Shown: positions 40,431 to 64,000, counted from the first letter of the stretch. The stretch: DNA of 64,000 nt from an uncultured virus (IMG/VR IMGVR_UViG_3300028559_000007) (IMGVR_UViG_3300028559_000007), one strand, 5' to 3'. The notes: a model not told the origin generated them from the letters alone. Translations and numbers: made by a program.

Positions 40431-41216
40431 TTATACATATTTCCATATATAACCACCAGCGGTTTTAACCTTACCTTTACAACAAGCACATATATTAACA
40501 CTTAATATATTTGTTTCTTTTTCAGCCATTTTTATTGATGAGTATCTATTTATCTCATTTAAATTCTTATCAAATTGAATAACTTGCTTTCTTAGAAACC
40601 TAATCTCAACCTTATTTAAATCTACATCATTATCATATTTCCAAATAAACCCCCTATGATGATTCCTCTTACCTTTAAGACAATTAGATATTTTAGAAGC
40701 ACTGAAATATCCACCACTTTCAAATATAGCATCACTAATACACTTATATCTTTTTATTTGATTATAATCAGTATCGTATTGAATTATTGGTTTATAACTA
40801 GCAACATTAGAAATTCCAATTAATTTATTTTTAATTTTCTGTTTAGTTTCGTCACTACAAGCAATACCTTTATTATGAGGTATATTACCCTTTTTAAATG
40901 ATCCCTTATTACCAAAAGTCGAACCATCCCCACCTAATGTATAATTAACTAAATCAAATCCCCATGTTTTAAATAAAGAGATATAGAATTTCTCCCAATA
41001 ATGCCATTCAATAATTGGAACCTCATCTATAATAATTAATTCTGGTCTAAAACCATCCTTTCTAATACTATTTATCCAATTTCTTTTGTGTGTGTTTTTA
41101 TCTCTTGATGAATTGAAATGATTTGTATATCTATCTTTTGGATTATTAGCCTTACCAATATATCTAACTTGATTAGTTCTTGGATCAGATAAAGCATATA
41201 TGAAAACATTTTGCAT
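40431..41216 (-). CDS. GIY-YIG homing endonuclease with NUMOD-type repeats
   Basis: FIYAL..RYIGKA..R; two I.QYD..CxKG..GxIWKY repeats. Confidence 0.88.
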   Translation of the reverse strand: MQNVFIYALSDPRTNQVRYIGKANNPKDRYTNHFNSSRDKNTHKRNWINSIRKDGFRPELIIIDEVPIIEWHYWEKFYISLFKTWGFDLVNYTLGGDGSTFGNKGSFKKGNIPHNKGIACSDETKQKIKNKLIGISNVASYKPIIQYDTDYNQIKRYKCISDAIFESGGYFSASKISNCLKGKRNHHRGFIWKYDNDVDLNKVEIRFLRKQVIQFDKNLNEINRYSSIKMAEKETNILSVNICACCKGKVKTAGGYIWKYV

Positions 41217-42011: not shown

Positions 42012-42140
42012 ACAAAAATCCCTTAGTGTTTAAATCTAAGGGATTTGCGACACTTGATGAGGATAGCGAATCACATCTGGCCTAAACTTAGCGGTCCTAA
42101 GTCATATTTTAAATAATAATGGATTATTCCATTTAAAAAT
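42012..42140 (-). ncRNA. Candidate small RNA between a late motif and an intrinsic terminator
   Basis: TAATATATA at 42141-42149 (minus), hairpins including ACTTAG-GACCG-CTAAGT, terminator AAATCCCTTAG/CTAAGGGATTT with U-tract; no sizeable ORF. Confidence 0.5.
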
Positions 42141-42198
42141 TATATATTAAGAAGGTATATCTACAATTAATATATAATTAAAAATTAAATAAAAACTT

Positions 42199-52306: not shown

Positions 52307-52511
52307 TTGATTTTAACATATCATTAAAGTCAATATCAATCACACCATCTAAATCACTATAAAGTTCTCTTAAAATCATCTTTAACCTAACCATTTCATC
52401 ATCCGAAAGCAAACCATCATTCAGTTTATTTCCAAAAACAACTTTTGACATTCCCATTTTCTGAGCCAATAATGTTTGGTTCAATTTCCATTTTTTAATT
52501 ACTTCTAACAT
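52299..52511 (-). CDS. Small HTH protein downstream of the transposase
   Basis: LNQTLLAQKMGMSK. Confidence 0.65.
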   Translation of the reverse strand: MLEVIKKWKLNQTLLAQKMGMSKVVFGNKLNDGLLSDDEMVRLKMILRELYSDLDGVIDIDFNDMLKSII

Positions 52512-53439
52512 TTTTTAATTCTTTATAGGTTAAACGATTGTTAATATTATTAAGGACATAATCAAATCTATAACTTTCTGAAAATCCACGAGTGTTATAT
52601 CTGAAAACAAATTCATCAACATATCTTTGTAAATGTTTCTTACTCATTGAATGATAAATACCCATTATTCCTCTCTTCAAAATTGCCCAAAATCCTTCAA
52701 TTGTATTTGTGTGAATATCACCTTTAACATATTCCTTACTATTGTGTTTTACAACATTATGATCAAAGATTTTAGATAATCCTTTATATCCTAACCATTC
52801 ATCAGTATTTAACGGATTTCCTGATTTTAAGTTTTTGTGTATAAACTTCTTCAAGATTTCTCCTGATGTTCCATCTACAACATTGGCTCTCAATTCGCCA
52901 CCTCTTTTAATAATTCCAACAACTGGGATTTTAGTTTTCAAACTTCTACCTTGTGTTCCCTTTGTCTTTTTACTTTGATGTTTATTCTTTTCTTGACCAC
53001 CAATATAAGTTTCATCTGCTTCACAAGTTCCTTCTAATTTATCAGTTGGTTGATTATTTAATCCTAAACTATGTCTAACTCTATGAAGCATAAACCAAGC
53101 AGTTTTTTGAGTAATTCCTAAATCTTTGTGTAATTGTAAAGATGATATACCTTTCTTATGCGAAGTTATAAGATAAATAGCAGCAAACCATTTTTGTAGA
53201 GATATTTTACTTCCTTCAAACATTGTTCCAACTCTTACTGAAAATTGTTTCTTACATTTATCACACTTATAAACTTTACCATTACTATATTTGAAAACTT
53301 TATCGTGCTTACAATCTTCATAAGGACAGGTTATATTACCATTCCATCTAATTTGTTCCAAATATTCTCTACACACTTGTTCATTATTGAAGTATGTGAA
53401 AAGTTGGACTAAATTATTGAATTTCTGTAAGATTATCAT
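52495..53439 (-). CDS. IS1595-family DDE transposase
   Basis: Zn ribbon CPY..C..CDKC, GISSLQL..TAWFM.HR, EADETY.GG, TDEW..Y, HTNTIEGFW. Confidence 0.96.
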   Translation of the reverse strand: MIILQKFNNLVQLFTYFNNEQVCREYLEQIRWNGNITCPYEDCKHDKVFKYSNGKVYKCDKCKKQFSVRVGTMFEGSKISLQKWFAAIYLITSHKKGISSLQLHKDLGITQKTAWFMLHRVRHSLGLNNQPTDKLEGTCEADETYIGGQEKNKHQSKKTKGTQGRSLKTKIPVVGIIKRGGELRANVVDGTSGEILKKFIHKNLKSGNPLNTDEWLGYKGLSKIFDHNVVKHNSKEYVKGDIHTNTIEGFWAILKRGIMGIYHSMSKKHLQRYVDEFVFRYNTRGFSESYRFDYVLNNINNRLTYKELKNVRSN

Positions 53440-53564
53440 ACATATTATATGATAAAATCACGAAAAAGTTTTTACAAATGTAAATAAAATAATTAAACTT
53501 TCCTAATTTTATTTATATAATTAATAAGAATTAGGTTAAACAAGTATATAGTTCCCAAAAATTA

Positions 53565-54077
53565 TTTAATACAATATTTGAACTAGTAGATAAATTAAAA
53601 GATTATTCTCCAAAATTTTCTTTTAGAGATGATAGTTTTTTAATTATACTTAAAGGAGAAAAAGTTCCTGAAAAATTAATGATATTAAAAGAAGACTTAA
53701 TAAATGCTTATAGAAAATTATATAAATTATTAGATGATTTAAATTCATCTCTTATTAAGAGTGGTGAAGATGTAATAGAGAGAATTGTTTTTTTTAATCA
53801 ATTTAATAAACTATCTATTAAATTTTATGATAGTGCAAAAAAATCTCGATATGGTGCATCAAGAAACTTAGATGATCTACATCAACAAAAAATGTTAAGT
53901 GTTTTAGCATCAATTTGCACATCAATGCAAAATAAAGAAGGATTTGAATGGATCAAAGATCAAGAGAAAATTACAGAATATGAAGAAATAAGAGATGAAA
54001 TTAATGATCTAGGATTTAATATAAAATTTAAAGGAACTGATAGTTTTAATTACGAATTAATAATCTATGAACAATAA
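53565..54077 (+). pseudogene. 3' part of the gene disrupted by the transposon
   Basis: Open frame from the duplication (FNTIFELV..) into ORF 53679..54077; reconstituted protein 273 aa. Confidence 0.85.
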
Positions 54078-54079
54078 AT

Positions 54080-54793
54080 TTATATTAACTTATTTTTTAT
54101 TAATTTATCATTAAAATCACCACTTCTTTCAAAATATTTATTTACAACTTTAAAAGATTTATTTACAAATCTACCACTTGATGTTTTAATAACAATTCCT
54201 TCTCTAATACCATTTCTATAATCAGAATTTTTCTCAGACCATTCAACAATATCTGAAATAGAATTAATTTTTAATTTAATAGGTTTAATATATTTAATAT
54301 TTGTTTTAGATAATAATTCTTCAACTACTTCAGGTGATAAAAACTCATAATCCTCAGCAGACCATATATCATAAGCTATAAATAAATCAGGAATTTTGTC
54401 ATAATATAAGGAATGTTTTGCAAACATCCACTCACCATATATTGTAATTGGTGAATAACACAACTCACTAATAATTTTAATATCATCTTCATGTTTATGA
54501 ATCCAATTCCAAGCTGATGTGAATTGCATCTTAGCAGGTGTTTTTATTTTAGTATATCCTTTTTTAAGAATATGACTTCTATTTCGAAGAATGGGTCCAT
54601 CTGTCCAAGATATACCCATATTAGCACCATCAATTTTTTCTTGAATAAAACACTCAAATGGAAATTGCATAGGAGTATCTAACTCGATATCATCGTGAGT
54701 CATATTAGAAATTTCTTTACTAAAATGTGGTATTCTCCAATAGTCTGGGGCAATATTTCTAATTTTCATTTTCTGTATTTTTATATTTATCAT
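54080..54793 (-). CDS. ATP-dependent RNA ligase family protein
   Basis: EKIDGAN, YGEW, FIAYDI, EGIVIK, FKVV; likely start 54769. Confidence 0.85.
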   Translation of the reverse strand: MINIKIQKMKIRNIAPDYWRIPHFSKEISNMTHDDIELDTPMQFPFECFIQEKIDGANMGISWTDGPILRNRSHILKKGYTKIKTPAKMQFTSAWNWIHKHEDDIKIISELCYSPITIYGEWMFAKHSLYYDKIPDLFIAYDIWSAEDYEFLSPEVVEELLSKTNIKYIKPIKLKINSISDIVEWSEKNSDYRNGIREGIVIKTSSGRFVNKSFKVVNKYFERSGDFNDKLIKNKLI

Positions 54794-54932
54794 AAAGATG
54801 CCATATAGATATAGCGCTCAATTCCAACAGAAAAAAGAAAACTTTATCCGTTGGTTTATCATTGGTTAAAAATGTATATACTACAAATCCAATGATTACA
54901 AATATTTCTAATATTGATATTATCTTTTTCAT
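54759..54932 (-). CDS. Small (57 aa) membrane protein absent from the ORF track
   Basis: MKKIISILEIFVIIGFVVYTFL.., overlaps both neighbours as in an operon. Confidence 0.5.
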   Translation of the reverse strand: MKKIISILEIFVIIGFVVYTFLTNDKPTDKVFFFLLELSAISIWHLYDKYKNTENEN

Positions 54933-55204
54933 CTTTTTAATATACTTTGTATTAATTTATCTAAGTTATATTCTCGTAAATTAGTCTCCTCAACTTTTAC
55001 ATGAACTTTACTTTGTCTTATTTTTTCTATTTTAAGTATTCTAAGATACTTGCTATTCCAATATACTAAATTATCATTAGAATTTATAAAGTTAATAACT
55101 TCTTTATTGTTTTTAAACTCTAAAATAACAATTCCCGGTAAATGATCAAATTTTGTTAATTTCCATCTATCTTGATTGGATAAAACTTTTGCGTGTTGTA
55201 TCAT
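54929..55204 (-). CDS. Hypothetical protein (REYNLDKLI tail)
   Basis: ORF in ligase operon. Confidence 0.6.
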   Translation of the reverse strand: MIQHAKVLSNQDRWKLTKFDHLPGIVILEFKNNKEVINFINSNDNLVYWNSKYLRILKIEKIRQSKVHVKVEETNLREYNLDKLIQSILKR

Positions 55205-55859
55205 ATATTTCTAATAGTTTTTTATCTCCGTTAAGTTCTTCAAGAAGAGCTCTTTCTCCATGTAAAGTCTTTACTTTTTGAATCCAATCAATAGTTTTAA
55301 CTTTTACCATCCAAATTTCATCTTTTTGTTTTTTCGTTTTTGAAATACCTTTAACAATGACTCCCTCTTTTAATTTATATTTATTGTTTCTAATATCTTG
55401 AACAAAATCCATTGTATATTTTCCCTTATAAATAATATCTGGTATATGTAAATGTCCAAAATCTTCAATAAAGTTTTTTGGAGTAACAAATCCATGTTTA
55501 TATTGGTCAACATCAAATAGTATAATATCTTTTGGATCACTATCAATATGACGACCAGCAAAGGATTCATCTCCAAAATATTCAGCAAATACTAAAAAAC
55601 TTTCAATTCGTTTATAACTTTTATTTGTTCTGAATACTTTAGGAAGACTATCACCATACTTATTTAAAAATAGTGTGATAGCCTCTCCAAATTGTAAATC
55701 TCTTTCATCAATCATTATATTTCTGGTTCCAAATTTATACCATCCTCTTTTAGGATTCCATTCAGCACGAATATTACTACCATCTAATTTATCAAATGCA
55801 TAGATGTCTTCGTTAAATATACCCTGGTTAAAATATTGTATTCTTGGATAACTTTTCAT
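55167..55859 (-). CDS. RNA ligase-like nucleotidyltransferase
   Basis: DKLDGSN, FAEY, LFDV, EGVIVK, VKVK. Confidence 0.85.
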   Translation of the reverse strand: MKSYPRIQYFNQGIFNEDIYAFDKLDGSNIRAEWNPKRGWYKFGTRNIMIDERDLQFGEAITLFLNKYGDSLPKVFRTNKSYKRIESFLVFAEYFGDESFAGRHIDSDPKDIILFDVDQYKHGFVTPKNFIEDFGHLHIPDIIYKGKYTMDFVQDIRNNKYKLKEGVIVKGISKTKKQKDEIWMVKVKTIDWIQKVKTLHGERALLEELNGDKKLLEIYDTTRKSFIQSR

Positions 55860-55863
55860 AATT

Positions 55864-56070
55864 TTATTTATTTAATTCTTTTTTAATCCACTCTTTAAGC
55901 TGATGCTTTTCAGAGCGTTTTACTCCACGTTTTTCACGTTCAAGATCTTTTTTGATTTTCTTAACCATATTTGGATCTTGTATAAAATGAAGAGCTCTTT
56001 TTCTTTTCTTTATGCTTTGGACCTTTTCTTCATATATGTTTTCAAAGTCCTCGTTAACATCGGTTTTCAT
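55864..56070 (-). CDS. Small basic protein
   Basis: ORF in operon. Confidence 0.55.
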   Translation of the reverse strand: MKTDVNEDFENIYEEKVQSIKKRKRALHFIQDPNMVKKIKKDLEREKRGVKRSEKHQLKEWIKKELNK

Positions 56071-56411
56071 AGTCTTTCAGATTTTTTATAAGCTAATTCA
56101 TAGCTTGAGTTAATTTTTTTATATAGCTTTTCAGCCGTAAATTCTTCTAAATGTTTTCCCTTAGTTTGGATAATATACCACTCAGTATATCCACAATTAA
56201 ATTGTTCTGCTTTAAAGTGACAACCATCATAACAATCGCAAAGTGTTATACCATTCTCCTTTACATATCCACCATTTGGTATATTTTTTCTTGAAGTTAT
56301 ATGATGTGCATCAAGTTTAACATCACTTTTACCGCACATTACACACTTAAAGTTGTCTCTTTCAAAAACATCTTTTCTAAATTTATCTCTTATTTGTTGT
56401 TTGATTTTCAT
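56067..56411 (-). CDS. HNH endonuclease
   Basis: VFERDNFKCVMCG..DAHHI..NGITLC..CH. Confidence 0.88.
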   Translation of the reverse strand: MKIKQQIRDKFRKDVFERDNFKCVMCGKSDVKLDAHHITSRKNIPNGGYVKENGITLCDCYDGCHFKAEQFNCGYTEWYIIQTKGKHLEEFTAEKLYKKINSSYELAYKKSERL

Positions 56412-56439
56412 ATCTGTTTAATTTTTTATTTTTGGGCAT

Positions 56440-56600
56440 AAAAAACCCAGTCAACTTTTGATTGACTGGGTAGATAGTTATAGCACTACTGACCTTGGTC
56501 AATCATTTCTGAATATGTAGTACATTATTTTCATTTATATTATATTTTATTTATTATCTGTTTATATTACAAATATACAAAAAGTTTTTAAACTTCCAAA
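56440..56600 (-). promoter_or_regulatory. Attenuator: promoter, leader peptide MKIMYYIFRND (56534-56499), antiterminator and terminator upstream of the RNA ligase operon
   Basis: TTTG-19-TATATTTG; terminator ACCCAGTCAA/TTGACTGGGT plus U-tract; TGATTGAC at the leader stop is complementary to terminator arm GTCAATCA. Confidence 0.75.
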
Positions 56601-56617
56601 ATTAATTATTTTAGATT

Positions 56618-57109
56618 TTATCTACTTCCATATTGTATACCTTGCAGTACTATTGTTCCATCAGTTCTTTCGTGTATAAATCCAGATGATTTTATTATTT
56701 CTTGTGGAGTATTACCTTTAGAATAATCTGATGAAATGATTACTTCTGTTTCTAATCCCAAAGTTTCAAGATATTGTATAATATCTTTTACTCTAATTTT
56801 AGTATTTGATTTTTCTTGACTCCATTCACCATCAGTCCTTTCACCATCAATCATATATTCTTCTAAACTTTCATTTAAAAAATTTTTAAACTCTTTAATA
56901 TGAGTAAGTTTTTGATCTTTAGCTAAAAACTTCTCAGCATCAATTTTTTTCGAGTTAGGTTTTCTATAAGTTCCTTTCTTTGGTTTTTCAGCTAAATGAT
57001 CTTCACTTGATAAAGTCGAATTATTTGGTTTTTTAGATGAAACATGTCCTTGTTTCTTCATGTCTTTAGACAACTTCTGGTCTTTGTGGTTTATTTGTTT
57101 ATGATTCAT
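56618..57109 (-). CDS. Hypothetical protein
   Basis: ORF; internal HIKEFKNFLNES motif. Confidence 0.6.
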   Translation of the reverse strand: MNHKQINHKDQKLSKDMKKQGHVSSKKPNNSTLSSEDHLAEKPKKGTYRKPNSKKIDAEKFLAKDQKLTHIKEFKNFLNESLEEYMIDGERTDGEWSQEKSNTKIRVKDIIQYLETLGLETEVIISSDYSKGNTPQEIIKSSGFIHERTDGTIVLQGIQYGSR

Positions 57110-57127
57110 AATAGTATATATATTTTT

Positions 57128-57562
57128 TTACCAACCAATATTTTTACTTAAACTTGAATTAAATCCACCAAAATGATTAAATAATCTATCTTTCATATAT
57201 TCACCAGCTTTACCATGAAATAATTTATTATCTGAACTACCATGTCTCCAAAGGTATGCTAACTCACGGTGTGACATACTATCGATCTTTTCTTTGTCTT
57301 CTGGTGATAATTCTTCTTCTTTATTCTCGTTTAATTTGGAAAAAGAGTTGAAATTTAAAATCTTACACTCTTTAACTTTTTCAGGTAAGTTTTTATGTTT
57401 AGTTTTTGCAAATTTCTTTAATTGTTCTTCGGTCATTGAGTTGGCTAATTTCTTTATTTCATCAGCATATTGAGGACTTAAATCTTTAAATTTAACATCG
57501 CCTCTTTTATAAGCAAGTGCTTGGGCCATTAACCGTTGTTGAGCTATTGATTTAGACGGCAT
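57128..57562 (-). CDS. DUF3008-like protein
   Basis: MPSKSIAQQRLM..SMTEEQLKKFAKTKHKNLPEK. Confidence 0.7.
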   Translation of the reverse strand: MPSKSIAQQRLMAQALAYKRGDVKFKDLSPQYADEIKKLANSMTEEQLKKFAKTKHKNLPEKVKECKILNFNSFSKLNENKEEELSPEDKEKIDSMSHRELAYLWRHGSSDNKLFHGKAGEYMKDRLFNHFGGFNSSLSKNIGW

Positions 57563-57626
57563 ATAAGTATTTAATTTTACTTATATATTAACTATAATTA
57601 TTGACTTTTATAAATTGTATCGAAAG

Positions 57627-57715
57627 CAGAGGTAGCCGTAATCGAAACGGGCCCGTCATTACACGGTTCTTGTTTTCCAAACAAGCGAGAGCCACCTGCT
57701 CTACCTACTACCTCT
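57627..57715 (-). tRNA. tRNA-Ser(GGA)
   Basis: AGAGGTA/TACCTCT acceptor, CTTGT-TTGGAAA-ACAAG, long variable arm; non-canonical T arm. Confidence 0.8.
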
Positions 57716-57722
57716 AAATTTG

Positions 57723-57795
57723 TAGTTCCAGTGAGATTCGAACTCACATTATATCTTTCGCAAAGATATGTCCTATCCAATTGGACGATGGAACC
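57723..57795 (-). tRNA. tRNA-Arg(GCG)
   Basis: Full cloverleaf; TATCT-TTGCGAA-AGATA. Confidence 0.88.
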
Positions 57796-57801
57796 TAATT
57801 T

Positions 57802-58500
57802 TTATTTTACTCTACCTCTTAATATATCTGAAATTGTACTTCTAGCACATCCTAATCTTAATGATATTTCTTTATTTGTTAGTCCTTCTTTGTGCCACTC
57901 AAAGACAATTTCTCTATCTATTTTTTTTGAAATTTTTTTTATTTTATAGTTTTTTATTAAATCTATATTTTCTATATAAAAATTCATATCAAAATGTTCA
58001 GAAACGTGACAATTAGAACAAAGTACTTCACATTTTTTTATCTCATTTTTAATAATATTATTCAATTCATGTATTGAGTTTAATCTCTCACTCAAAGATC
58101 CAATTGAAAATGTTTTTTCATTCGGATCTCGATGGTGAAATGTCAATCCTGATGCACACTTATTATATCCACATTTTACACATTTAGCACCGGCATATTC
58201 TAAATAGATAATTTTATCATTTCTTCTTTTATCATTTATGTTTGACTTCTCTGAAAAATGTAATTCTCTATGGCAATTTTGACATAGTAATTGACACTTT
58301 TTAGCTTCCTTTAATATCATGTCAAAAGAACAAGATGATTTCTCACTAATTCGGAACTCTTTTTCTTTATCAACATGATGAAAACAGAGATGTATAAAAT
58401 CATCATTTCCACATATCTGACAACATCCACCTAATTCACTTACTAATAAAATTTTATTTTTTATTCTTCTTATTTTTTGTAATATGTTCTTATTACTCAT
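57802..58500 (-). CDS. Homing endonuclease with two HNH-like domains and C-terminal HTH, inside the tRNA array
   Basis: Two CxxCG..FHH..C..LCxNCH units; NKEISLRLGCARSTIS. Confidence 0.85.
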   Translation of the reverse strand: MSNKNILQKIRRIKNKILLVSELGGCCQICGNDDFIHLCFHHVDKEKEFRISEKSSCSFDMILKEAKKCQLLCQNCHRELHFSEKSNINDKRRNDKIIYLEYAGAKCVKCGYNKCASGLTFHHRDPNEKTFSIGSLSERLNSIHELNNIIKNEIKKCEVLCSNCHVSEHFDMNFYIENIDLIKNYKIKKISKKIDREIVFEWHKEGLTNKEISLRLGCARSTISDILRGRVK

Positions 58501-58542
58501 GGTCGAGTTTTATTTTTATATATAAAAATAAAACTCGACCAT
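58499..58542. promoter_or_regulatory. Perfect 44-bp palindrome overlapping the endonuclease start codon
   Basis: ATGGTCGAGTTTTATTTTTATA/TATAAAAATAAAACTCGACCAT. Confidence 0.8.
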
Positions 58543-58553
58543 TTGTACTTTTG

Positions 58554-58645
58554 CGGAAGTGGTGAGTGCCGACCTCACTCGCCGGTTTTTAGCCGGCCTA
58601 TCACGTTAGCAATGTGACCCCTTTGCCATCATTGGGTACACTTCC
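58554..58645 (-). tRNA. tRNA-Ser(GCT)
   Basis: GGAAGTG/CACTTCC acceptor, loop TTGCTAA, long variable arm; T loop GTCGGCA. Confidence 0.8.
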
Positions 58646-58712
58646 AAAAATAAGAATACAAGGGTTACCAATCTTTACCAGTGGTTAATTGGTGGCTTAT
58701 ATATTCTTTAAG

Positions 58713-58801
58713 CGGAGGTAACAGGAGTCCAACCTGTACGCCGGAGTTTCACCGACCTAGCCGTTTTCAAGACGGTGTACCTCTGTCAACTGGGTACCTC
58801 C
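58713..58801 (-). tRNA. tRNA-Ser(TGA), atypical D and T loops
   Basis: GGAGGTA/TACCTCC, CCGT-CTTGAAA-ACGG, long variable arm. Confidence 0.7.
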
Positions 58802-58809
58802 AAAATTTG

Positions 58810-58898
58810 AGGAGGAAATCAGATTCGAACTGATGAATCATATTTCTACGATTTTCGCTTTTCAAGAGCGACGGAATAAACCACTCTCCCATTCCTCC
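58810..58898 (-). tRNA. tRNA-Ser(TGA)
   Basis: Canonical class II cloverleaf; TCGCT-CTTGAAA-AGCGA. Confidence 0.88.
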
Positions 58899-58904
58899 AA
58901 TAAT

Positions 58905-58977
58905 TCGGTGTCATTCTCCTATTATGATACTATGTGTAGCTATTTCACACGATGGGATTCGAACCCACATCTACCGA
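58905..58977 (-). ncRNA. Circularly permuted tRNA-like RNA (YrlA-type arm order)
   Basis: TCGGT/ACCGA closing stem, then T arm GTGGG-TTCGAAT-CCCAT, loop-closed stem GTGTG/TACAC, D-like arm TCAT-AATAGGAGA-ATGA. Confidence 0.65.
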
Positions 58978-58980
58978 TTG

Positions 58981-59059
58981 ACCTCCAGGTGAGATTCGAA
59001 CTCACATCTATCCGTTACGGTATTTAACTTGTTTCGAAGACAAGGCCGATACAGGAGGT
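58981..59059 (-). tRNA. tRNA-Arg(TCG)-like RNA lacking a D arm, with extended variable region
   Basis: ACCTCC/GGAGGT acceptor, CTTGT-CTTCGAA-ACAAG, GTGAG-TTCGAAT-CTCAC. Confidence 0.65.
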
Positions 59060-59062
59060 TAT

Positions 59063-59102
59063 AAAATAAAAAATCCTCGAACTTTTTCAAATTCGAGGAT
59101 TT
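59063..59102 (-). terminator. Attenuator terminator upstream of the Ser/Arg tRNA block
   Basis: AAATCCTCGAA/TTCGAGGATTT stem plus U-tract on minus strand. Confidence 0.85.
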
Positions 59103-59127
59103 CGTGTATTTTTATTTTAGCAATACA

Positions 59128-59196
59128 TTACCATCTTCGAATTTTATTCGAACTACGACTTGACGACGATAATGATGTATTGTTCATGATTTTCAT
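59128..59196 (-). CDS. Ser/Arg-rich leader peptide MKIMNNTSLSSSSRSSNKIRRW
   Basis: 7 Ser and 3 Arg codons in 22; lies between promoter and terminator; overlaps antiterminator segment. Confidence 0.8.
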   Translation of the reverse strand: MKIMNNTSLSSSSRSSNKIRRW

Positions 59197-59211
59197 ATTA
59201 TTTATATATTA

Positions 59212-59243
59212 CAAATATACTTTTTTGTTTTTAAATTTCCAAA
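59212..59243 (-). promoter_or_regulatory. Bacteroidota-type promoter (TTTG-20-TATATTTG) directly followed by TAATATATA
   Basis: Exact consensus match. Confidence 0.75.
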
Positions 59244-59249
59244 TTTTAT

Positions 59250-59747
59250 TTAAAAATTATCTGATACTTCTCTAATTTCTTTATATTTTTCATAAAATAC
59301 AAACATTTTTTCTGCATCACTTATGTTAAGATATTTTAAAGAAAAGAATGTTGGCATTCCATTTACTGAAGTTGGTCCGGCTTGATCTAAATATTCATAG
59401 ATAAGTCCTATATTTCCCAAGAATACTTTTTTAAAAATTTTATATTCTTGATTATATAATATAATATCATTATCATATTTTTTTTGTTCAATCTCTCTAT
59501 CAACAATATCATAAATTACATTATCTCTTTTACCAGATAATGTACTATTTTCTGATGGATAAGATGGTGATTTAGGAACATCGGGCCCAATAAACATTAA
59601 ACACATGAAACAACTATTAACATCAGAAGATGATCTACAGTGGCGGTCAGTATATATGATTCCATTATATAGATCTTTAGCTATTTTTTTTAGTTCATCT
59701 TCTGTTGATGAATTAATAGTCCATTTATTTATCCAATCTTGTTCCAT
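59250..59747 (-). CDS. Hypothetical protein
   Basis: ORF; IYEYLDQAGP..VNGMP.F motif. Confidence 0.65.
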   Translation of the reverse strand: MEQDWINKWTINSSTEDELKKIAKDLYNGIIYTDRHCRSSSDVNSCFMCLMFIGPDVPKSPSYPSENSTLSGKRDNVIYDIVDREIEQKKYDNDIILYNQEYKIFKKVFLGNIGLIYEYLDQAGPTSVNGMPTFFSLKYLNISDAEKMFVFYEKYKEIREVSDNF

Positions 59748-59764
59748 TTTGTAAATATAATAAT

Positions 59765-60061
59765 TTATTCAATTATATCATTTAAAACTTTACCAAATTG
59801 TATAATATATTGCTCAAGTAATCTAAACTCATTATCTGAATCACCATCAAGTCTATAATGTCTGAAGTTTTTTATATCCATAAATCTCATTTCATAACCA
59901 CAATTAAATGGTGTTTCTATCTGATTAGTGTAGAAAATAGTAAATACTAATCTAGCATTTCCAGAATTAACTCCTTGAACCCATACTTTTGTAATATTAG
60001 GTCTTAATCTAGAGTTAATAATATCTCTTAATTTAATTAATGTAATTGAGAATGTGTCCAT
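59765..60061 (-). CDS. Hypothetical protein
   Basis: ORF. Confidence 0.6.
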   Translation of the reverse strand: MDTFSITLIKLRDIINSRLRPNITKVWVQGVNSGNARLVFTIFYTNQIETPFNCGYEMRFMDIKNFRHYRLDGDSDNEFRLLEQYIIQFGKVLNDIIE

Positions 60062-60086
60062 ATAATTATTTATTTTTAAAGATTTG

Positions 60087-60215
60087 CGGGGAGGGTTGGA
60101 TTCGAACCAACGACTTATATGTTCAAAATATACGAAGTAACTCTTTCGATCAACACTCTTTTCAGAGGTAAAGTTTCAAAAGAGATAGTTTACTCTACCA
60201 CTGAGCTACCTCCCC
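60087..60215 (-). ncRNA. tRNA-like RNA with about 55-nt insertion after the D arm
   Basis: GGGGAGG/CCTCCCC acceptor, D arm GCTC-AGTGGTA-GAGT, T arm GTTGG-TTCGAAT-CCAAC, inserted hairpin CTCTTTT..GAAAAGAG. Confidence 0.7.
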
Positions 60216-60220
60216 ATTTG

Positions 60221-60303
60221 TGGAACTGGTGGGACTCGAACCCACGACGTGATTTATCAGGCGGCTTAAGAGGCCGATGCAATCGCCACTATGCGACAGT
60301 TCC
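60221..60303 (-). tRNA. tRNA-Lys(CTT) with long variable arm
   Basis: CGGC-CTCTTAA-GCCG; variable arm TGAT-AA-ATCA. Confidence 0.82.
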
Positions 60304-60308
60304 GAATG

Positions 60309-60394
60309 TGTGCCTGGTGGGATTCGAACCCACGATGTGGTATTAACCAGACGGTTTAAAAGACCGTTGCTCTCAGCCGCTGAGCGACAAGCAC
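60309..60394 (-). tRNA. tRNA-Lys(TTT) with long variable arm
   Basis: ACGGT-CTTTTAA-ACCGT; variable arm TGGT-TAAT-ACCA. Confidence 0.82.
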
Positions 60395-60399
60395 ATTAG

Positions 60400-60482
60400 T
60401 CCGTCCGGTAGAATTCGAATCTACGATGTCACAAGGAGTCAGATTAAAAGTCTGATGGTATCAGCCACTCACCCACGGACGG
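60400..60482 (-). tRNA. tRNA-Lys(TTT) with long variable region
   Basis: TCAGA-CTTTTAA-TCTGA; 14-nt variable region. Confidence 0.8.
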
Positions 60483-60495
60483 ATTATATATTTTG

Positions 60496-60568
60496 TGCGT
60501 CCGAAGGGATTTGAACCCTTAACCTGCTGGTTAAAAGCCAGCTACTCTAACAATTGAGTTACGAACGC
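60496..60568 (-). tRNA. tRNA-Lys(TTT)
   Basis: Class I cloverleaf; GCTGG-CTTTTAA-CCAGC. Confidence 0.9.
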
Positions 60569-60611
60569 GGTTTACTTTCGGGTCGGTTCGTGAATCAACC
60601 ACTTACCAACC

Positions 60612-60653
60612 CTATCGTTTATATTTTCGTTTTATTATTGTAATAGTTCTCAT
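60612..60653 (-). CDS. Lys/Arg-rich mini-ORF MRTITIIKRKYKR ahead of the Lys tRNAs
   Basis: 13 codons; stop overlaps hairpin 60580-60612. Confidence 0.45.
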   Translation of the reverse strand: MRTITIIKRKYKR

Positions 60654-60746
60654 TTTATTATAATTTTTTAGGTCAATTCGATGTAGCTTATAACACCTCG
60701 ATTTAATCTTCTGTTCGTATGAAGAACTTCTCGAATTAACATTTAG

Positions 60747-60817
60747 CACGAGTGGCTACAATCGAAGTAGCTCGTGAAGATTTTGGAGATCCCACCGACA
60801 CCAAGCCTGTCACCCGT
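60747..60817 (-). tRNA. tRNA-Trp(CCA), atypical D arm
   Basis: ACGGGTG/CACTCGT, GGGAT-CTCCAAA-ATCTT, CTAC-TTCGATT-GTAG. Confidence 0.7.
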
Positions 60818-60822
60818 ATTTG

Positions 60823-60895
60823 TGGTTTCAGACGGACTTGAACCGCCGACGCTCGCCTCTTCAGGGCGACGCTCTACCAACTGAGCTATGAAACC
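60823..60895 (-). tRNA. tRNA-Phe(GAA)
   Basis: Canonical; TCGCC-CTGAAGA-GGCGA. Confidence 0.93.
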
Positions 60896-60900
60896 TTTTG

Positions 60901-60990
60901 CATACTCGTAGGGATTCGAACCCTCACCAATCGTTAGACCCCTTTCGGAGAGCGGGTTGGAGCCGCCTGGTCACGCCTATGAGCGAGTAC
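60901..60990 (-). tRNA. tRNA-Trp(CCA)-like RNA with extra arm
   Basis: GTACTCG/CGAGTAT, GCGG-CTCCAAC-CCGC, extra GAAA-tetraloop hairpin, T loop TTCGAAT. Confidence 0.65.
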
Positions 60991-60998
60991 ATTTTTTG

Positions 60999-61072
60999 GG
61001 TGAATGACGGGTTTCGATCCCGCTGCCTTAGGTGCCACAAACCTACGCTCTACCAATTGAGCTACAATCACC
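60999..61072 (-). tRNA. tRNA-His(GTG)
   Basis: G-1/C73; TAGGT-TTGTGGC-ACCTA. Confidence 0.9.
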
Positions 61073-61102
61073 ATTTTGTCATCCTGTTAAATCAGGACTT
61101 CG

Positions 61103-61175
61103 TGGAGTCTCCCGGTTACGATCCGGGTCCTCTGGTTTTTCAGACCAGTGCTTCTACCAAGTTAGCTTAGACTCC
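61103..61175 (-). tRNA. tRNA-Phe(GAA)
   Basis: GGAGTCT/AGACTCC; CTGGT-CTGAAAA-ACCAG. Confidence 0.85.
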
Positions 61176-61180
61176 ATTTG

Positions 61181-61253
61181 GGTGTTATATGGGATTTGAA
61201 CCCATCCCCTGGTTTTCACAGAACCAGATGCTTACCACTACAACAACAACACC
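61181..61253 (-). tRNA. tRNA-His(GTG)
   Basis: G-1/C73; TGGTT-CTGTGAA-AACCA. Confidence 0.82.
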
Positions 61254-61255
61254 AT

Positions 61256-61292
61256 AAAAACAAAAAACCCGAATCTTTTGGATTCGGGTTTT
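61256..61292 (-). terminator. Attenuator terminator upstream of the His/Phe/Trp/Lys tRNA block
   Basis: AAAACCCGAATC/GATTCGGGTTTT stem plus U-tract. Confidence 0.85.
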
Positions 61293-61320
61293 GGAATTTC
61301 TCTATCAAAAACTACGATAA

Positions 61321-61425
61321 TTATACTATCTCATTTTTTGGCAGTTCGTTCTTAGTACCGAATCGATGGCTAAAATGCCATTTAAACGATTTACTAAAAG
61401 ATTTATGTGTACGAACTGTTGTCAT
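61321..61425 (-). CDS. Leader peptide MTTVRTHKSFSKSFKWHFSHRFGTKNELPKNEIV
   Basis: 3 His, 4 Phe, 5 Lys, 1 Trp; contains GATTCGG complementary to the terminator 5' arm. Confidence 0.75.
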   Translation of the reverse strand: MTTVRTHKSFSKSFKWHFSHRFGTKNELPKNEIV

Positions 61426-61473
61426 TATTTCTATATATTAAATTTTATTTCTCTCTTTGTTTCTTTTACATTA

Positions 61474-61504
61474 CAAATATACAAAAGTTTTCTGTAATAC
61501 CAAA
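61474..61504 (-). promoter_or_regulatory. Bacteroidota-type promoter (TTTG-19-TATATTTG)
   Basis: Exact consensus match. Confidence 0.75.
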
Positions 61505-61657
61505 TTATTTATTATTTATTTTTATCTTCTATTGTTTACTTGGTAAAATCAGTATTTTTTATTATTTTTAACATTACAAATGTATATAAACTTTTTTAAA
61601 CCACCAAATTAATTTTATTAACAAAATTTTCATATATTTGTGTTATATATAATTATA

Positions 61658-61813
61658 ATGGAAGAAAGACCAAGTAAACCTATAAAAGAATATGCTCCAC
61701 AAGGAACAAAAGATTGTGAATCTAATTGTGAGAGAGAAGTAATAATGACTCCAAGGGGGCCTGTTATTGTTTGCCATTTTTGTGAACGAATAGTTCTTGA
61801 GATTCGCAAATGA
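61658..61813 (+). CDS. Small 51-aa Cys-containing (Zn-ribbon-like) protein absent from the ORF track
   Basis: MEERPSKP..CESNC..CHFC..; TATATTTG upstream at 61633-61640. Confidence 0.55.
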   Translation: MEERPSKPIKEYAPQGTKDCESNCEREVIMTPRGPVIVCHFCERIVLEIRK

Positions 61814-61823
61814 TATATAAGAT

Positions 61824-62327
61824 ATGAAACATCTTAAGAAATTTAATGAATCAATAAATATATATGATATAGATTGGCATAATATAGTTCCAAAGTATCT
61901 TACCATAATTAAAGATGATAGAACTACAAAATTTAAATGTGGTAATATAATGAAACATTTTGATATGGTTCAAGTTACCTATGATACTGATCAAGGAGAA
62001 ATATGGGGAGTTCCGGATACACTAGAGTTTGATGTATATTTTGTAAAACCAGGCGGTAAAATTGATAAATCACTAAGATTAGATATAGATATAACATATG
62101 GTAATTTAGTTACTTCAGAATTTAGTATTACAACACCTAGTAAAGTTAATGTAATACAATATACATCATATCATTCTAAATTTGATCCATCAAATACAGT
62201 ATTTGCTTTTGATGAAGATAGCCTTGAAAAATTAATTAAATTTTTTAATGTTTTTAATGGAATTAAAGTATCAAGAGAACAATTTAATTTTCTTGATGCA
62301 GATCCTAACAATTACTATCCTAATTAA
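61824..62327 (+). CDS. Hypothetical protein, capsid-targeting-like N-terminus
   Basis: MKHLKKFNES. Confidence 0.7.
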   Translation: MKHLKKFNESINIYDIDWHNIVPKYLTIIKDDRTTKFKCGNIMKHFDMVQVTYDTDQGEIWGVPDTLEFDVYFVKPGGKIDKSLRLDIDITYGNLVTSEFSITTPSKVNVIQYTSYHSKFDPSNTVFAFDEDSLEKLIKFFNVFNGIKVSREQFNFLDADPNNYYPN

Positions 62328-62328
62328 A

Positions 62329-62365
62329 AATTAAAACCCCTTCAATATTTGAAGGGGTTTTAATT
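62329..62365. terminator. Bidirectional terminator
   Basis: 17-bp stem AATTAAAACCCCTTCAA/TTGAAGGGGTTTTAATT between convergent genes. Confidence 0.8.
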
Positions 62366-62384
62366 ATAAGATATCAAATTATTA

Positions 62385-62660
62385 TTAAGAGTTAACAACA
62401 TTTGAAAGACCTGATCCTGCCTTAAAACGAGCAGCTCTTTTAGATGGAATATTAAGTTCTACACCAGTTTTTGGATTACGACCTTTACGAGCTTTACGTG
62501 TGATTGTATCAAAAGTTCCAAAACCAACTAATGTTACTTTTTCACCATTTACAAGAGCTCCTTGGATAGATTCTACAATACTATCAACAACCTCCCCAGT
62601 TTTTGTTTTTGTTAAACCAGTTTTCCCGGAAATTTCGTTAACTAAATCTGCTTTATTCAT
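62385..62660 (-). CDS. hup: HU family DNA-binding protein
   Basis: MNKADLV..GEKVTLVGFGTF..RKGRNPKTG. Confidence 0.96.
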   Translation of the reverse strand: MNKADLVNEISGKTGLTKTKTGEVVDSIVESIQGALVNGEKVTLVGFGTFDTITRKARKGRNPKTGVELNIPSKRAARFKAGSGLSNVVNS

Positions 62661-62737
62661 TTATTTAATTTGTTTTTTCTATGAATTTCTTCATTAATAA
62701 TTATATACATAGAATCAATCAAGGTTTTAAAAGTTTA

Positions 62738-62977
62738 CTAGTTTTTTGTATATTTTTCAATAAATTCATTTAGACTTTTCCCAGTATTTGCCAGATAAAT
62801 AACTGCAATAAATCCAATAATGAATAATATTGAAAATATAATTAAACATGGAATCCAATATGGCGAAAATACCCACCACCAAGACCAATTTATATTATTA
62901 GTTAATTTTAATATTGAAAAAATAATAACAAGTAAAGTTAAAAAATTGATACCGGATTTTTCATTTTACTGATCCAT
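62738..62977 (-). pseudogene. Small membrane protein (WSWWWV.SP.W type) with a stop at codon 4
   Basis: ATG GAT CAG TAA AAT GAA AAA TCC GGT..LKLTNNINWSWWWVFSPYWIP..TAG in one frame. Confidence 0.65.
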
Positions 62978-62978
62978 A

Positions 62979-63338
62979 TTAAAAAGATGTAGTCCTCATA
63001 TAATTTGTAAATATTTCTTCACCCGGATATATATCTTTAACAGCTGTGAATATATAACAGTTATTTTCTATATCAGTTGTCCAGGTTGCATTATTATCTT
63101 CTCTATGATTATAAATACTTCCGAACCCTAAAACAACTGCATGAGAATCCTTAGTAAATAAAGGCCATGAAAAAGTATATTCTTTCAATGAGTTATCTAA
63201 TTTTTCAAAATTAGATTCATTTAAGTGTATGAAATGACATTCTTCTATTACTTCACCAGATAATATCATGTCATTTGTAAAAACTCCTTTTCCGTGAATA
63301 GGAGAATCTTTAACTATAATTTTACTAGAAACAAACAT
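62979..63338 (-). CDS. SET-domain protein methyltransferase
   Basis: SPIHGKGVF, GSIYNH..N, DIYPGEEIFTNY. Confidence 0.92.
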   Translation of the reverse strand: MFVSSKIIVKDSPIHGKGVFTNDMILSGEVIEECHFIHLNESNFEKLDNSLKEYTFSWPLFTKDSHAVVLGFGSIYNHREDNNATWTTDIENNCYIFTAVKDIYPGEEIFTNYMRTTSF

Positions 63339-63410
63339 ATAATTTATATTTAGAATATTTTTTTTGTTTAGAATTATTCCTTATATTTATAAAACAAACA
63401 ACTATAAATA

Positions 63411-63842
63411 ATGGCTAATATTAATATATTTAAAGGTCAGTATAGAAATCAAAATGATCAAGTTTTCACTTTTGATGGTAAATATATCTACATAGGTAGA
63501 TATGCTCAAAGAAGTGCTATTAAATATACTTGGGATGGTAAACGCCTTTATAAAGGAGAATATCCTAATATTGGTAGTGTTATATTAACATTTGATGGAA
63601 AGTATATTTATGATGGTCAATATGAAATGTGGGGTAAAGTATCATATACTATTAAAGATAATATGGTTTACAGAAACTATGGTAATTCCGATAATGATAT
63701 TATCATGAAATTTGATGGTAAAAAACTTTACTCTGGTAGATATGAATATCAAAATAATATCATTTTGAATTGTGATGGACCACTTCCTTTATTTTTAATG
63801 TTTGTTATGTATTCTAATCCAGTTAAAGGACTTCCATTATAA
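63411..63842 (+). CDS. Beta-strand repeat protein
   Basis: About five 20-aa repeats T(F/W)DGKxxYxGxY. Confidence 0.7.
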   Translation: MANINIFKGQYRNQNDQVFTFDGKYIYIGRYAQRSAIKYTWDGKRLYKGEYPNIGSVILTFDGKYIYDGQYEMWGKVSYTIKDNMVYRNYGNSDNDIIMKFDGKKLYSGRYEYQNNIILNCDGPLPLFLMFVMYSNPVKGLPL

Positions 63843-63852
63843 TATATAATGT

Positions 63853-64000
63853 GTGAAAAATACAGATATACTTATTAAATTAAAGCCTATATTGAATGGA
63901 TTCAATTCTAAACAAAAAATAATCCTTAGTCAGATTATGTCAAATAATGATTACTCCTTTATAGATTATAAAGGAGATATTTGTATAAAAACAAAAGAAG
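63853..64000 (+). CDS. Partial hypothetical ORF running off the window
   Basis: GTG start after TAATATATA; open to the end. Confidence 0.45.
   Translation, partial: MKNTDILIKLKPILNGFNSKQKIILSQIMSNNDYSFIDYKGDICIKTKE

Follow-up and report, generated by a model that had tools for sequence, protein, structure and literature searches.

Codon-matched leader peptides and intrinsic terminators as probable attenuators of tRNA blocks and RNA ligase genes in a huge lake phage

Three units on the minus strand of the DNA analyzed here (64 kb of an uncultured virus, in the following called the window) are quite likely ribosome-mediated transcription attenuators, which use host-type promoters in a huge phage infecting Bacteroidetes and would keep tRNA supply under feedback control. 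Judging from the sequence, the tRNA sets and the two RNA-repair ligases encoded in these units are probably made only when the codons of short leader reading frames are decoded slowly. The window is part of the genome of a huge lake phage, related to the uncultured phages LR745206.1, LR756502.1 and LR756501.1 (634-735 kb). Units A, B and C share a common layout consisting of a promoter, a short ORF, a stretch that complements the 5' arm of the terminator, an intrinsic terminator and a payload, the latter being His/Phe/Trp/Lys tRNAs in unit A, Ser/Arg tRNAs in unit B and two RNA ligases in unit C. A sequence-only reading had proposed three minus-strand units with this one layout, and every element it claimed was found in its place. 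The anatomy of the units, their conservation and covariation and the match between leader codons and tRNAs are established by comparison of the sequences. Our search of the literature found no published case of codon-matched attenuators in front of phage tRNAs.

The pattern TTTG-N17-21-TAnnTTTGTAAT matches four times in the 64-kb window (0.03 matches expected), and all matches are located within the region under study. We take this pattern to be the Bacteroidetes -33/-7 consensus. Pattern matches mark the promoters of unit A (-33/-7 type, TTTG ... TATATTTGTAAT, 61470..61504), unit B (TTTG ... TATATTTGTAAT, 59208..59243) and unit C (TTTG ... TATATTTGTAAT, 56566..56600) as well as an upstream tandem host-type promoter (TTTG ... 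TACATTTGTAAT, 61573..61608) roughly 100 nt upstream of that of unit A; these and all features below are on the minus strand. The motif TTAATATATA (61432..61441), present in 25 copies in the window compared to 3.6 expected, lies 7 nt before the ATG of leader A and is possibly a second, phage-type promoter of this unit. Behind the TTTG...TAnnTTTG promoters of units A, B and C stand ORFs of 34, 22 and 11 codons, respectively, two of which start with MKIM, as had been noted before. Their start ATG is invariant in 34 (leader A), 15 (leader B) and 7 (leader C) aligned homologues. Scanning the whole window for strong terminator-like sites yielded 11 sites, some of them one hairpin counted on both strands, and only at the terminators of units A, B and C do a short ORF (11-34 aa) and a TAnnTTTG motif lie upstream.

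The leader of unit A is MTTVRTHKSFSKSFKWHFSHRFGTKNELPKNEIV (34 codons and stop, 61321..61425). Its core, HKSFSKSFKWHF, is written in His, Lys, Phe and Trp codons and also contains Ser codons, for which block A has no tRNA; over the whole peptide the enrichment of residues matching the block is modest in some copies (p=0.095 for L001). ARAGORN calls tRNAs for His, Phe, His, Phe and four times Lys after the leader. The complete payload (60087..61252) comprises His, Phe, His and Phe tRNAs, a probable tRNA-Trp (60817-60746), a Lys mini-ORF (60652-60611), the four Lys tRNAs and a tRNA-like RNA with an insert (60215-60087). The tRNA-Trp was missed by ARAGORN and Rfam; the earlier assignment of a Trp tRNA to this payload holds, since the sequence folds as a cloverleaf with the anticodon CCA. 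Homologues of leader A were found at 33 metagenome loci, and each of these (33 of 33) encodes one or more His, Phe, Trp or Lys tRNAs downstream. Insertions and deletions in leader A are multiples of three with the exception of a single 1-nt frameshift variant, in which the regulatory codons are kept and the C-terminal peptide, which is not conserved, is lost.

The unit A terminator (61264..61292) has a stem of 12 bp with a U-run behind it; the stem ends 11 nt before tRNA-His, and 9 of its 12 pairs covary across the unit A family. Segment 2 (61350..61364) contains GATTCGG, which pairs with the 5' arm of the terminator to give the antiterminator, while the 3' portion of the segment base-pairs with segment 1 (61387..61399; F-S-K-S codons), the anti-antiterminator strand of the MFE fold. 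RNAalifold likewise predicts this 1:2 helix (columns 30-42 with 75-85); the invariance of segment 1 is by construction, because the search pattern fixed it. In the antiterminator alignment 96.8% of cells are paired and five of seven pairs have changed on both sides, a level that none of 500 shuffles reached; the duplex between leader and terminator arm was matched by 6 of 300 dinucleotide shuffles.

Unit B is built in the same way. Its leader (MKIMNNTSLSSSSRSSNKIRRW, 22 codons and stop, 59128..59196) has seven Ser and three Arg codons, so that these two amino acids account for 10 of 21 residues (2.3 expected). Segment 2 (AAAATTCGAAGATG, 59132..59145) is complementary to the 5' arm of the intrinsic terminator (59070..59103), and a 1:2 anti-antiterminator is predicted. 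Across 15 sequences 93.3% of the antiterminator cells are paired, with three of eight pairs changed on both sides, and 10 of 300 dinucleotide shuffles matched the leader-to-arm duplex. The payload (57626..59058) contains an Arg(UCG)-like tRNA of odd form, Ser(tga), Ser(gct), an HTH/HNH-like ORF (58500-57802) that breaks the array, Arg(gcg) and Ser(gga); the four regular tRNAs are ARAGORN calls. All 11 loci at which a leader B homologue occurs have Arg and/or Ser tRNAs downstream.

From this arrangement we infer that ribosomes translate the leaders, that transcription ends at the hairpins, that it is coupled to translation and what the natural signal is. Host RNA polymerase would start at the promoter and a ribosome would translate the short leader. 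A ribosome clearing the regulatory codons would then cover segment 2, or segments 1 and 2 would re-pair behind it; with segment 2 occupied or re-paired, the terminator could form and transcription would end a few bases short of the payload. A ribosome delayed at the regulatory codons would leave segment 2 to bind the 5' arm of the terminator, and the polymerase could enter the payload. The tRNAs of units A and B would relieve the very stall that induced them, because they read the regulatory codons. Such a closed feedback loop would fit each tRNA set to the decoding demand, arising for example from the loss of a host tRNA or from the codon usage of the phage itself.

Folding with a ribosome footprint as constraint is consistent with this scheme: with the ribosome stalled no further than the regulatory run the antiterminator forms, and a ribosome beyond this point prevents it. 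Inside the stall-sensitive part of the leaders 281 of 650 residues match the block, versus 51 of 257 outside (odds ratio 3.1). The z value of the antiterminator duplexes averages -2.6 (37 units); complementarity is weak in the Gln, Glu/Tyr and Pro/Asp classes, with several units at z -0.1 to -1.8. A ribosome-free, truncated leader already favors the antiterminator in unit C and in many units of the relatives; untranslated transcripts would then read through, unlike those of trp.

The same device recurs in the related huge phages, where 32 of 37 runs of at least two tRNAs lie directly behind a leader and a terminator; same-class units are homologous, and counts over units are therefore not independent events. 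A scan of related genomes for this combination had been suggested together with the reading as leader-peptide attenuators, which is strongly supported by leaders, terminators and antiterminator pairings that are conserved and covary in the relatives. The stop codon of the leader is located 18-35 nt upstream of the terminator stem. The gap between the stem and the first tRNA is at most 21 nt in 21 of 34 units (11 nt in unit A) and leaves no room for a separate promoter; therefore, expression of the tRNAs needs read-through. Seven leader classes occur in these genomes, each written in the amino acids of its own tRNA block, as in the leader MTTTQQIQQQQINQTD before Gln tRNAs. Where Ala, Tyr, Glu, Ile and Gly tRNAs form a merged block the leader is merged too (IEAIGYAYEAG), and in the more distant phage of 735 kb five Leu tRNAs follow a leader rich in Leu.

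The repeated module of promoter and hairpin, with its near-identical promoter sequence, could also be viewed as a set of ordinary small genes or of cassettes like the PeSL modules of T4, in which a repeated promoter and stem-loop mediate gene shuffling; terminators would then be constitutive, the tRNAs leaky and the codon match due to chance or composition. Mobile genes (HNH, HTH/HNH-like ORF, IS1595) next to the units would suit such cassettes. We nevertheless regard this as the least probable explanation, with hardly any weight. The proposed correlation of codons and anticodons was found: three genomes were each compared with 5040 permutations of leaders and blocks, a fourth with 720, and the actual pairing ranked first every time. 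Moreover, the antiterminator covaries with the terminator, the leader changes along with the content of the block, and the C-terminal peptide shows no conservation and is frameshifted in one variant.

The agreement between leader codons and downstream tRNAs, claimed earlier, extends to the level of isoacceptors, with ATA versus ATT/ATC and CGN versus AGA following the tRNA encoded downstream. ATA is used for 11 of 15 Ile codons before tRNA-Ile(tat) and for one of 10 before Ile(gat) (p=0.004). Arg codons before Arg(acg) are CGN in 11 of 13 cases, against a background in phage ORFs of 458 AGR among 504 (91%). This bears on the nature of the signal. Leader-peptide attenuators such as trp and his read the availability of charged tRNA, which is set by amino-acid supply and tRNA level, so the units might respond to classical amino-acid starvation, that is to uncharged tRNA instead of tRNA abundance or damage, with the tRNAs belonging to a general starvation programme. 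In LR745206.1 the genes for AsnRS and an ArgRS-like protein stand behind a terminator and a leader whose codons read N-N-R-N-R, a charging-responsive arrangement of the pheST type that fits this explanation. We consider it unlikely, however: additional tRNA cannot relieve amino-acid starvation, and a sensor of amino acids has no need for codons that follow the downstream isoacceptor against genomic usage. The data agree with attenuators that monitor decoding capacity in general and, in the tRNA units, receive feedback directly from their product.

Could the leader RNA itself bind tRNA or another ligand, the ORFs being incidental? T-box leaders bind one uncharged tRNA directly via a specifier codon and the T-box sequence and need no ribosome. 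They would share with the units the sensing of tRNA status and a choice between mutually exclusive terminator and antiterminator helices ahead of translation-related genes; strong conservation of the leader nucleotides and an antiterminator that forms without a ribosome in many units also point in this direction. Against it, the matching triplets lie in one conserved reading frame, running from an invariant ATG to a stop at a fixed distance from the terminator, and indels preserve this frame. Runs such as QQQQQ and sets of several amino acids suit decoding better than a single specifier, and no T-box or riboswitch match was obtained with Rfam (E up to 1 in 53000-64000). A switch made of RNA only is accordingly very unlikely. 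None of the units reached the threshold of an Rfam leader family: the best hit was His_leader (RF00514) on unit B (31.6 bits versus 49, E=0.059), and units A and C had no match.

Among known systems the proposed attenuators resemble enterobacterial trpL, hisL, pheL, thrL and ilv in having a promoter-proximal short ORF with regulatory codons, a terminator and an exclusive antiterminator. For units A and B a 1:2 anti-antiterminator is predicted as well, and the sensing of several amino acids by one leader is known from thr and ilv. In contrast to these attenuators, the payload here consists of tRNA genes, whose product would act directly on the sensor, the units are phage-encoded with Bacteroidetes-type promoters, codons are matched at the isoacceptor level, and many units default to the antiterminator without a ribosome. 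In E. coli, the pheST attenuator places an aminoacyl-tRNA synthetase operon behind a leader with Phe codons. The units would share with it the control of a translation-apparatus gene by a cognate-codon leader, a type to which the N-N-R-N-R leader belongs; the payloads in the window, however, are tRNAs and RNA ligases in a phage context, not synthetases.

Unit C contains no tRNA genes, and here an identical switch at Tyr/Ile codons would gate an operon with two ligases. Its leader (MKIMYYIFRND, 11 codons and stop, 56499..56534) has homologues that read M-K-x-L-H-T-Y-K-I-x-I-D-W. Segment 2 (ATGATTGAC, 56498..56506) overlaps the stop codon and complements GTCAATC in the 5' arm of the intrinsic terminator (56445..56471), a duplex matched by none of 300 dinucleotide shuffles. 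The antiterminator is given here by complementarity only: the helices are identical across seven copies and, being invariant, yield no covariation. Both genes that had been taken for RNA ligases match PF09414, ligase A (55167..55859) with 30 bits at a cut-off of 27 and ligase B (54080..54793) with 89 bits. They are preceded by the gene for an HNH endonuclease (Pfam HNH, 56067..56411), a mobile element inserted right after the terminator, and by that for a 68-aa basic protein (55864..56070), the first conserved gene of the operon with tblastn matches in five relatives. Pfam matched none of the remaining ORFs in the operon (68, 91 and 57 aa), and no Pnkp was recognized among them; within the 64-kb window, the part of the phage genome covered, neither an anticodon nuclease nor a Pnkp was found.

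Phage T4 repairs tRNA with Pnkp and Rnl1 against the anticodon nuclease PrrC. As in T4, the RNA ligases adjoin tRNA genes; different from T4, both are of the PF09414 type, the operon has no recognized Pnkp and a leader-peptide attenuator would gate their expression. Unit C may sense the cleavage of tRNAs by anticodon nucleases and provide repair upon cleavage. In a wider sense, the largest known phages might possess a genome-wide, codon-addressed feedback regulon with unit C as damage sensor, in which every set of tRNA isoacceptors, one or more pairs of aminoacyl-tRNA synthetases and the RNA-repair ligases follow a mini-ORF in the codons they serve, a tentative extension whose chances we put well short of even. 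If it were true, the phage would gauge the decoding capacity of its host codon by codon and supply replacements as needed, with unit C turning on the RNA ligases when host anticodon nucleases cut Tyr, His, Thr or Lys tRNAs.

The HNH insertion after the unit C terminator is also present in L131 (80% identical).

The motif TTTG-N17-21-TAnnTTTGTAAT, which we take to be the -33/-7 promoter consensus of Bacteroidetes, is present at four minus-strand sites in the window compared to 0.03 expected. Two of these sites are located before unit A, one before unit B and one before unit C; a looser version of the pattern yields just three more matches, scattered elsewhere in the window at about chance level. 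Host-type promoters in the window are confined to the three units. Each promoter is followed by a short open reading frame (34, 22 and 11 codons in A, B and C, respectively) and then by a canonical intrinsic terminator. A scan of the whole window detected 11 strong terminator-like sites, some of them one hairpin counted on both strands, and only the terminators of units A, B and C are preceded by a short ORF and a TAnnTTTG motif. The layout proposed by the sequence-only reading, namely promoter, short ORF, segment complementary to the terminator 5' arm, terminator and payload, is complete in all three units. A different motif, TTAATATATA, occurs 25 times in the window compared to 3.6 expected, frequently right before gene starts (for example 61432-61441, 57582-57591 and 42141-42150, all on the minus strand), and is probably the phage's own promoter motif.

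All payloads are encoded on the minus strand. Using ARAGORN, the tRNAs His, Phe, His, Phe and four Lys were detected behind unit A, and Ser(tga), Ser(gct), Arg(gcg) and Ser(gga) behind unit B. The Trp tRNA that had also been claimed for payload A is probably encoded at 60746-60817 (minus strand), where a 72-nt cloverleaf with the anticodon CCA and one bulge in the anticodon stem was found; it is reported neither by ARAGORN nor by Rfam (E up to 1). Payload C consists of an HNH gene, a 68-aa basic protein and the two RNA ligases that had been noted behind the third unit, A (55859-55167) and B (54793-54080, minus strand), both of which belong to PF09414 according to Pfam.

The uncultured phages LR745206.1 (634,780 bases) and LR756502.1 (642,428 bases) share approximately 70% nucleotide identity with this region, and similarity to the window reaches LR756501.1 (735,411 bases) at the tRNA level. 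Phage genes located elsewhere in the window encode a family B DNA polymerase, ClpP, helicases, a baseplate protein, methylases and homing endonucleases. The main text of Al-Shayeb et al. (2020; PMC7162821) assigns its largest genomes to the "Mahaphage" clade, with predicted Bacteroidetes hosts.

The tRNA clusters of five related genomes were analysed together with those of the window. In this joint set, runs of at least two tRNAs are located directly behind a strong terminator and a preceding short ORF in 32 of 37 cases, and two of the five exceptions are blocks resumed behind an inserted stretch of about 0.8 to 1.1 kb. Single tRNAs, mostly Met, have such a leader and terminator in 2/8 cases. 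The distance between the leader stop codon and the terminator stem is 18-35 nt. Seven leader classes were seen; among them, leader MTTTQQIQQQQINQTD heads Gln tRNAs, ...NPQPQVVIDQDP... a Pro/Asp block, ...SYYYEE... a Glu/Tyr block, ...ISIAIIAGGAG... an Ile(tat)/Gly/Ala block and MTTMNLNMTMNLTLNVVNITLCNIR... an Asn/Leu/Met/Thr/Val/Ile/Arg(tct) block. When leaders and blocks were permuted within a genome, the true pairing ranked top of 5040 in three genomes and top of 720 in a fourth. The match between leader codons and payload tRNAs that had been suggested for the window extends to its relatives. At one locus (L047), a merged leader, ...IEAIGYAYEAG..., heads a merged block of Ala, Tyr, Glu, Ile, Gly, Ala and Ala tRNAs. 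In the 735-kb phage, five Leu tRNAs are located behind a Leu-rich leader, and the leader K-H-S-K-H-F-S-S-S-S-K-W-F heads Trp, His, Phe, Lys and Ser(cga) tRNAs.

The leader codons are those read by the downstream anticodons. Counted over leaders of which copies within one class are homologous and thus not independent, Ile is encoded as ATA in 11/15 cases before tRNA-Ile(tat) compared to 1/10 before Ile(gat) (Fisher p=0.004), and Arg as CGN in 11/13 cases in Ser/Arg leaders (blocks with Arg(acg), Arg(gcg) or Arg(tcg)) and as AGA in 7/9 cases in leaders of the block holding Arg(tct) (p=0.007). AGR accounts for 458 of the 504 Arg codons in the window's long ORFs. Since the leader codons track the downstream isoacceptors, the sequences argue that tRNA supply, and not amino-acid supply alone, would be sensed.

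The sequence-only reading depended on the leaders being conserved, and families of leaders A, B and C are indeed retained across relatives. Searching viral contigs with the leader A core pattern yielded 14 loci, comprising five true homologues and nine chance matches inside coding sequence; the same pattern found 78 loci in metagenome contigs, 39 of which passed the ORF filter. Loci L095, L107 and L111 were dropped from the set as chance matches, and L067, L087 and L080 were kept out of the alignment, their terminator being absent or cut off. In L067 and L087, a leader A variant continues into a longer ORF, no terminator was found and the sequence 3' of the leader is unlike that of the other homologues. 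A recognisable leader A plus terminator is found at 33 metagenome loci, each of which has one or more His, Phe, Trp or Lys tRNAs further downstream, and Arg and/or Ser tRNAs follow all 11 metagenome homologues of leader B.

The leader A peptide preserves the core H-K-[HSN]-F-S-K-S-x-K-W-F, and its C-terminal part is variable. One lineage (L082 and L106) carries a 1-nt frameshift after K-W-H, which alters the remainder of the peptide; all other indels in leader A ORFs are multiples of three. The idea that the leaders encode functional micropeptides was rejected in view of the unconserved C-termini and the existence of this frameshift variant.

Measured against dinucleotide shuffles, the best duplex between leader and terminator 5' arm is stronger, z averaging -2.6 over 37 units (-2.6, -2.1 and -3.7 in A, B and C of the window); in some Gln, Glu/Tyr and Pro/Asp units the duplex is no better than chance by the same shuffles. 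In the unit A family (34 distinct sequences), 96.8% of the cells of the 7-bp antiterminator, formed by the leader part termed segment 2 and the 5' arm, are paired, and five of the seven pairs show changes on both sides. None of 500 shuffles scored as high, and slid registers reached at most 66% paired. In the terminator of this family, 9/12 pairs covary, and in the L047 lineage leader, 5' arm and 3' arm are jointly altered from TTCGG/CCGAA to CTTGG/CCAAG. An anti-antiterminator between segments 1 and 2 (the 1:2 helix), in which the F-S-K-S codons pair with the 3' part of segment 2, is predicted by RNAalifold for unit A and shows one-sided changes only, the F-S-K-S segment having been fixed by the search pattern itself. 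The 8-bp antiterminator of the unit B family is 93.3% paired, with three pairs altered on both sides (15 sequences). The complementarity in unit C extends up to 11 nt and is invariant among the copies, and therefore gives no covariation signal. An Rfam search placed no unit in a curated leader family and found no T-box match, and direct tRNA binding as in T-boxes was considered and rejected; matches to microRNA, Plastid-ycf2, YrlA and tmRNA were far under threshold and taken as chance. PeSL-like cassettes were rejected as the whole explanation.

To model the switch, leaders were folded up to the 3' arm with a crude thermodynamic model, masking a ribosome footprint codon by codon (assumed to extend from about 15 nt before the A-site codon to 14 nt after it). 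In the ribosome-free RNAs of units A and B of the window, the model forms the 1:2 helix and leaves the 5' arm free, and therefore the terminator forms. When the A site is placed anywhere from codon 4 to codon 16 (A) or 15 (B), segment 2 is released and pairs with the 5' arm; a ribosome located further 3' covers segment 2. Over the 37 units modelled, the stall-sensitive window ends just past the regulatory run (KWF, SRSS, QQQQQI, GAG, YYEE, HTY), and block-matching residues make up 281/650 positions inside it compared to 51/257 outside (odds ratio 3.1). A rule common to all units would be that transcription is terminated by a ribosome that has passed the regulatory codons and reached segment 2. 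Because the ribosome-free RNA of unit C and many relatives already favours the antiterminator in the model, this rule would be simpler than in trp. The first tRNA starts at most 21 nt after the terminator stem in 21/34 units (11 nt in unit A), leaving no space for a separate promoter; the tRNAs would therefore be transcribed only by read-through. We infer here that the leaders are translated and that the hairpins stop transcription, and likewise what the natural signal would be; judged from sequence, the predicted mechanism is that of classical leader-peptide attenuators.

Payloads other than tRNAs were also found. In LR745206.1 (390300-394500, locus L133), a host-type promoter is followed by a leader with Asn and Arg codons (MKTMTINNRNRLTDII, 76-126), a terminator and then the genes for an asparagine-tRNA ligase and a divergent ArgRS-like protein (223-1401 and 1421-2599), the same logic as in pheST. 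The former scores 414.1 bits on NF003037 (cut-off 414) and 394.5 bits on TIGR00457 (342.6); the latter scores 26.4 bits on Pfam tRNA-synt_1d (cut-off 23.3) and is under threshold on TIGR00456. Within the His/Phe/Trp/Lys block of LR756502.1, behind a Trp-codon leader, lies a short TrpRS-like ORF of 239 aa (locus L002, 4396-5115; TIGR00233 132.7 bits, below the cut-off).

Unit C would be the switch applied to RNA ligases. It was found in six further loci with the leader M-[KR]-x-L-H-T-Y-K... and an unchanged terminator; the basic protein and RNA ligase A follow in four of these six, and RNA ligase B in three of the four. A search by terminator pattern gave 18 loci with three true copies (L116, L124, L131), the remainder being unrelated terminators, and four pattern matches to RNA ligase A in viral contigs yielded no confirmed relative. 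In the model, unit C of the window has Tyr-Tyr-Ile as its stall-sensitive codons, and the relatives have His-Thr-Tyr; it is attractive to think that these codons may signal when host nucleases cleave the corresponding tRNAs. Pfam recognised no end-healing enzyme in the operon, and a PDB sequence search with both RNA ligases gave no match.

Phage-encoded tRNAs are commonly regarded as constitutive supplements, and to our knowledge their regulation is largely unknown. In full-text searches, no title or abstract of the papers found described leader-peptide attenuation of tRNA genes, and the words terminator, attenuat and leader are absent from the main text of Al-Shayeb et al. (2020; PMC7162821). 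Novel aspects of the proposed device are its payload, direct feedback by the product, addressing at isoacceptor level, the phage setting and the regulon-like spread. If the reading is true, the phage gauges decoding speed and provides each tRNA set on demand, and the tRNA product acts back on its own sensor, a direct feedback loop that classical attenuators lack. Leader-peptide attenuation, a long-established mechanism, would then join three topics: tRNA arrays of phages, defence through depletion or cleavage of host tRNAs, and RNA repair. The switch is expected to be re-addressable by codon swaps in a leader of about 100 nt, and leaders could aid in assigning tRNAs to transcription units in uncultured huge phages.

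Several unusual elements were observed in and near the tRNA blocks. A second mini-ORF, nested and rich in Lys codons (60611-60652, minus strand; MRTITIIKRKYKR in the window), immediately precedes the sub-block of Lys tRNAs. It recurs in L001, L002 and over 20 further loci and reads MKTK[LMR]KYKR in relatives. A strong hairpin begins at its stop codon and has no U-run, and is therefore no intrinsic terminator. Three "tRNA-Lys" genes of 84-87 nt (60220-60482, minus strand) have a long variable arm, and these genes are kept in L001, L002, L003 and L016; Lys tRNAs normally belong to class I. At 60087-60215 (minus strand), a 129-nt tRNA-like RNA has a normal acceptor, D arm and T arm, and an insert of about 57 nt replaces the anticodon arm (Rfam tRNA score 46.6 bits, fold z -3.6); L015 contains a similar RNA. 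The first element past the unit B terminator (58975-59058, minus strand) resembles tRNA-Arg(UCG), with acceptor, anticodon arm, long variable arm and T arm; it has no normal D arm and was missed by both tRNA detection tools. Outside the three units, a strong terminator before a 241-aa gene (42016-42180, minus strand) is preceded by TTAATATATA and by CTTAGG/CTAAG repeats able to pair with its arms, without an ORF, and may represent another type of switch.

The region is dense in mobile genes (56067-56411, 57802-58500, 52495-53439 and 40431-41216, all on the minus strand), including an IS1595 transposase and a GIY-YIG endonuclease. L131 shares the insertion of the HNH gene directly after the unit C terminator, with 80% identity. 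An HTH/HNH-like ORF (57802-58500, minus strand) is located inside tRNA block B, and the junction between tRNA-Ser(gct) and the start of this ORF is marked by an AT-rich, perfect palindrome of 44 nt (58499-58542), the stem of which is 20 bp long.
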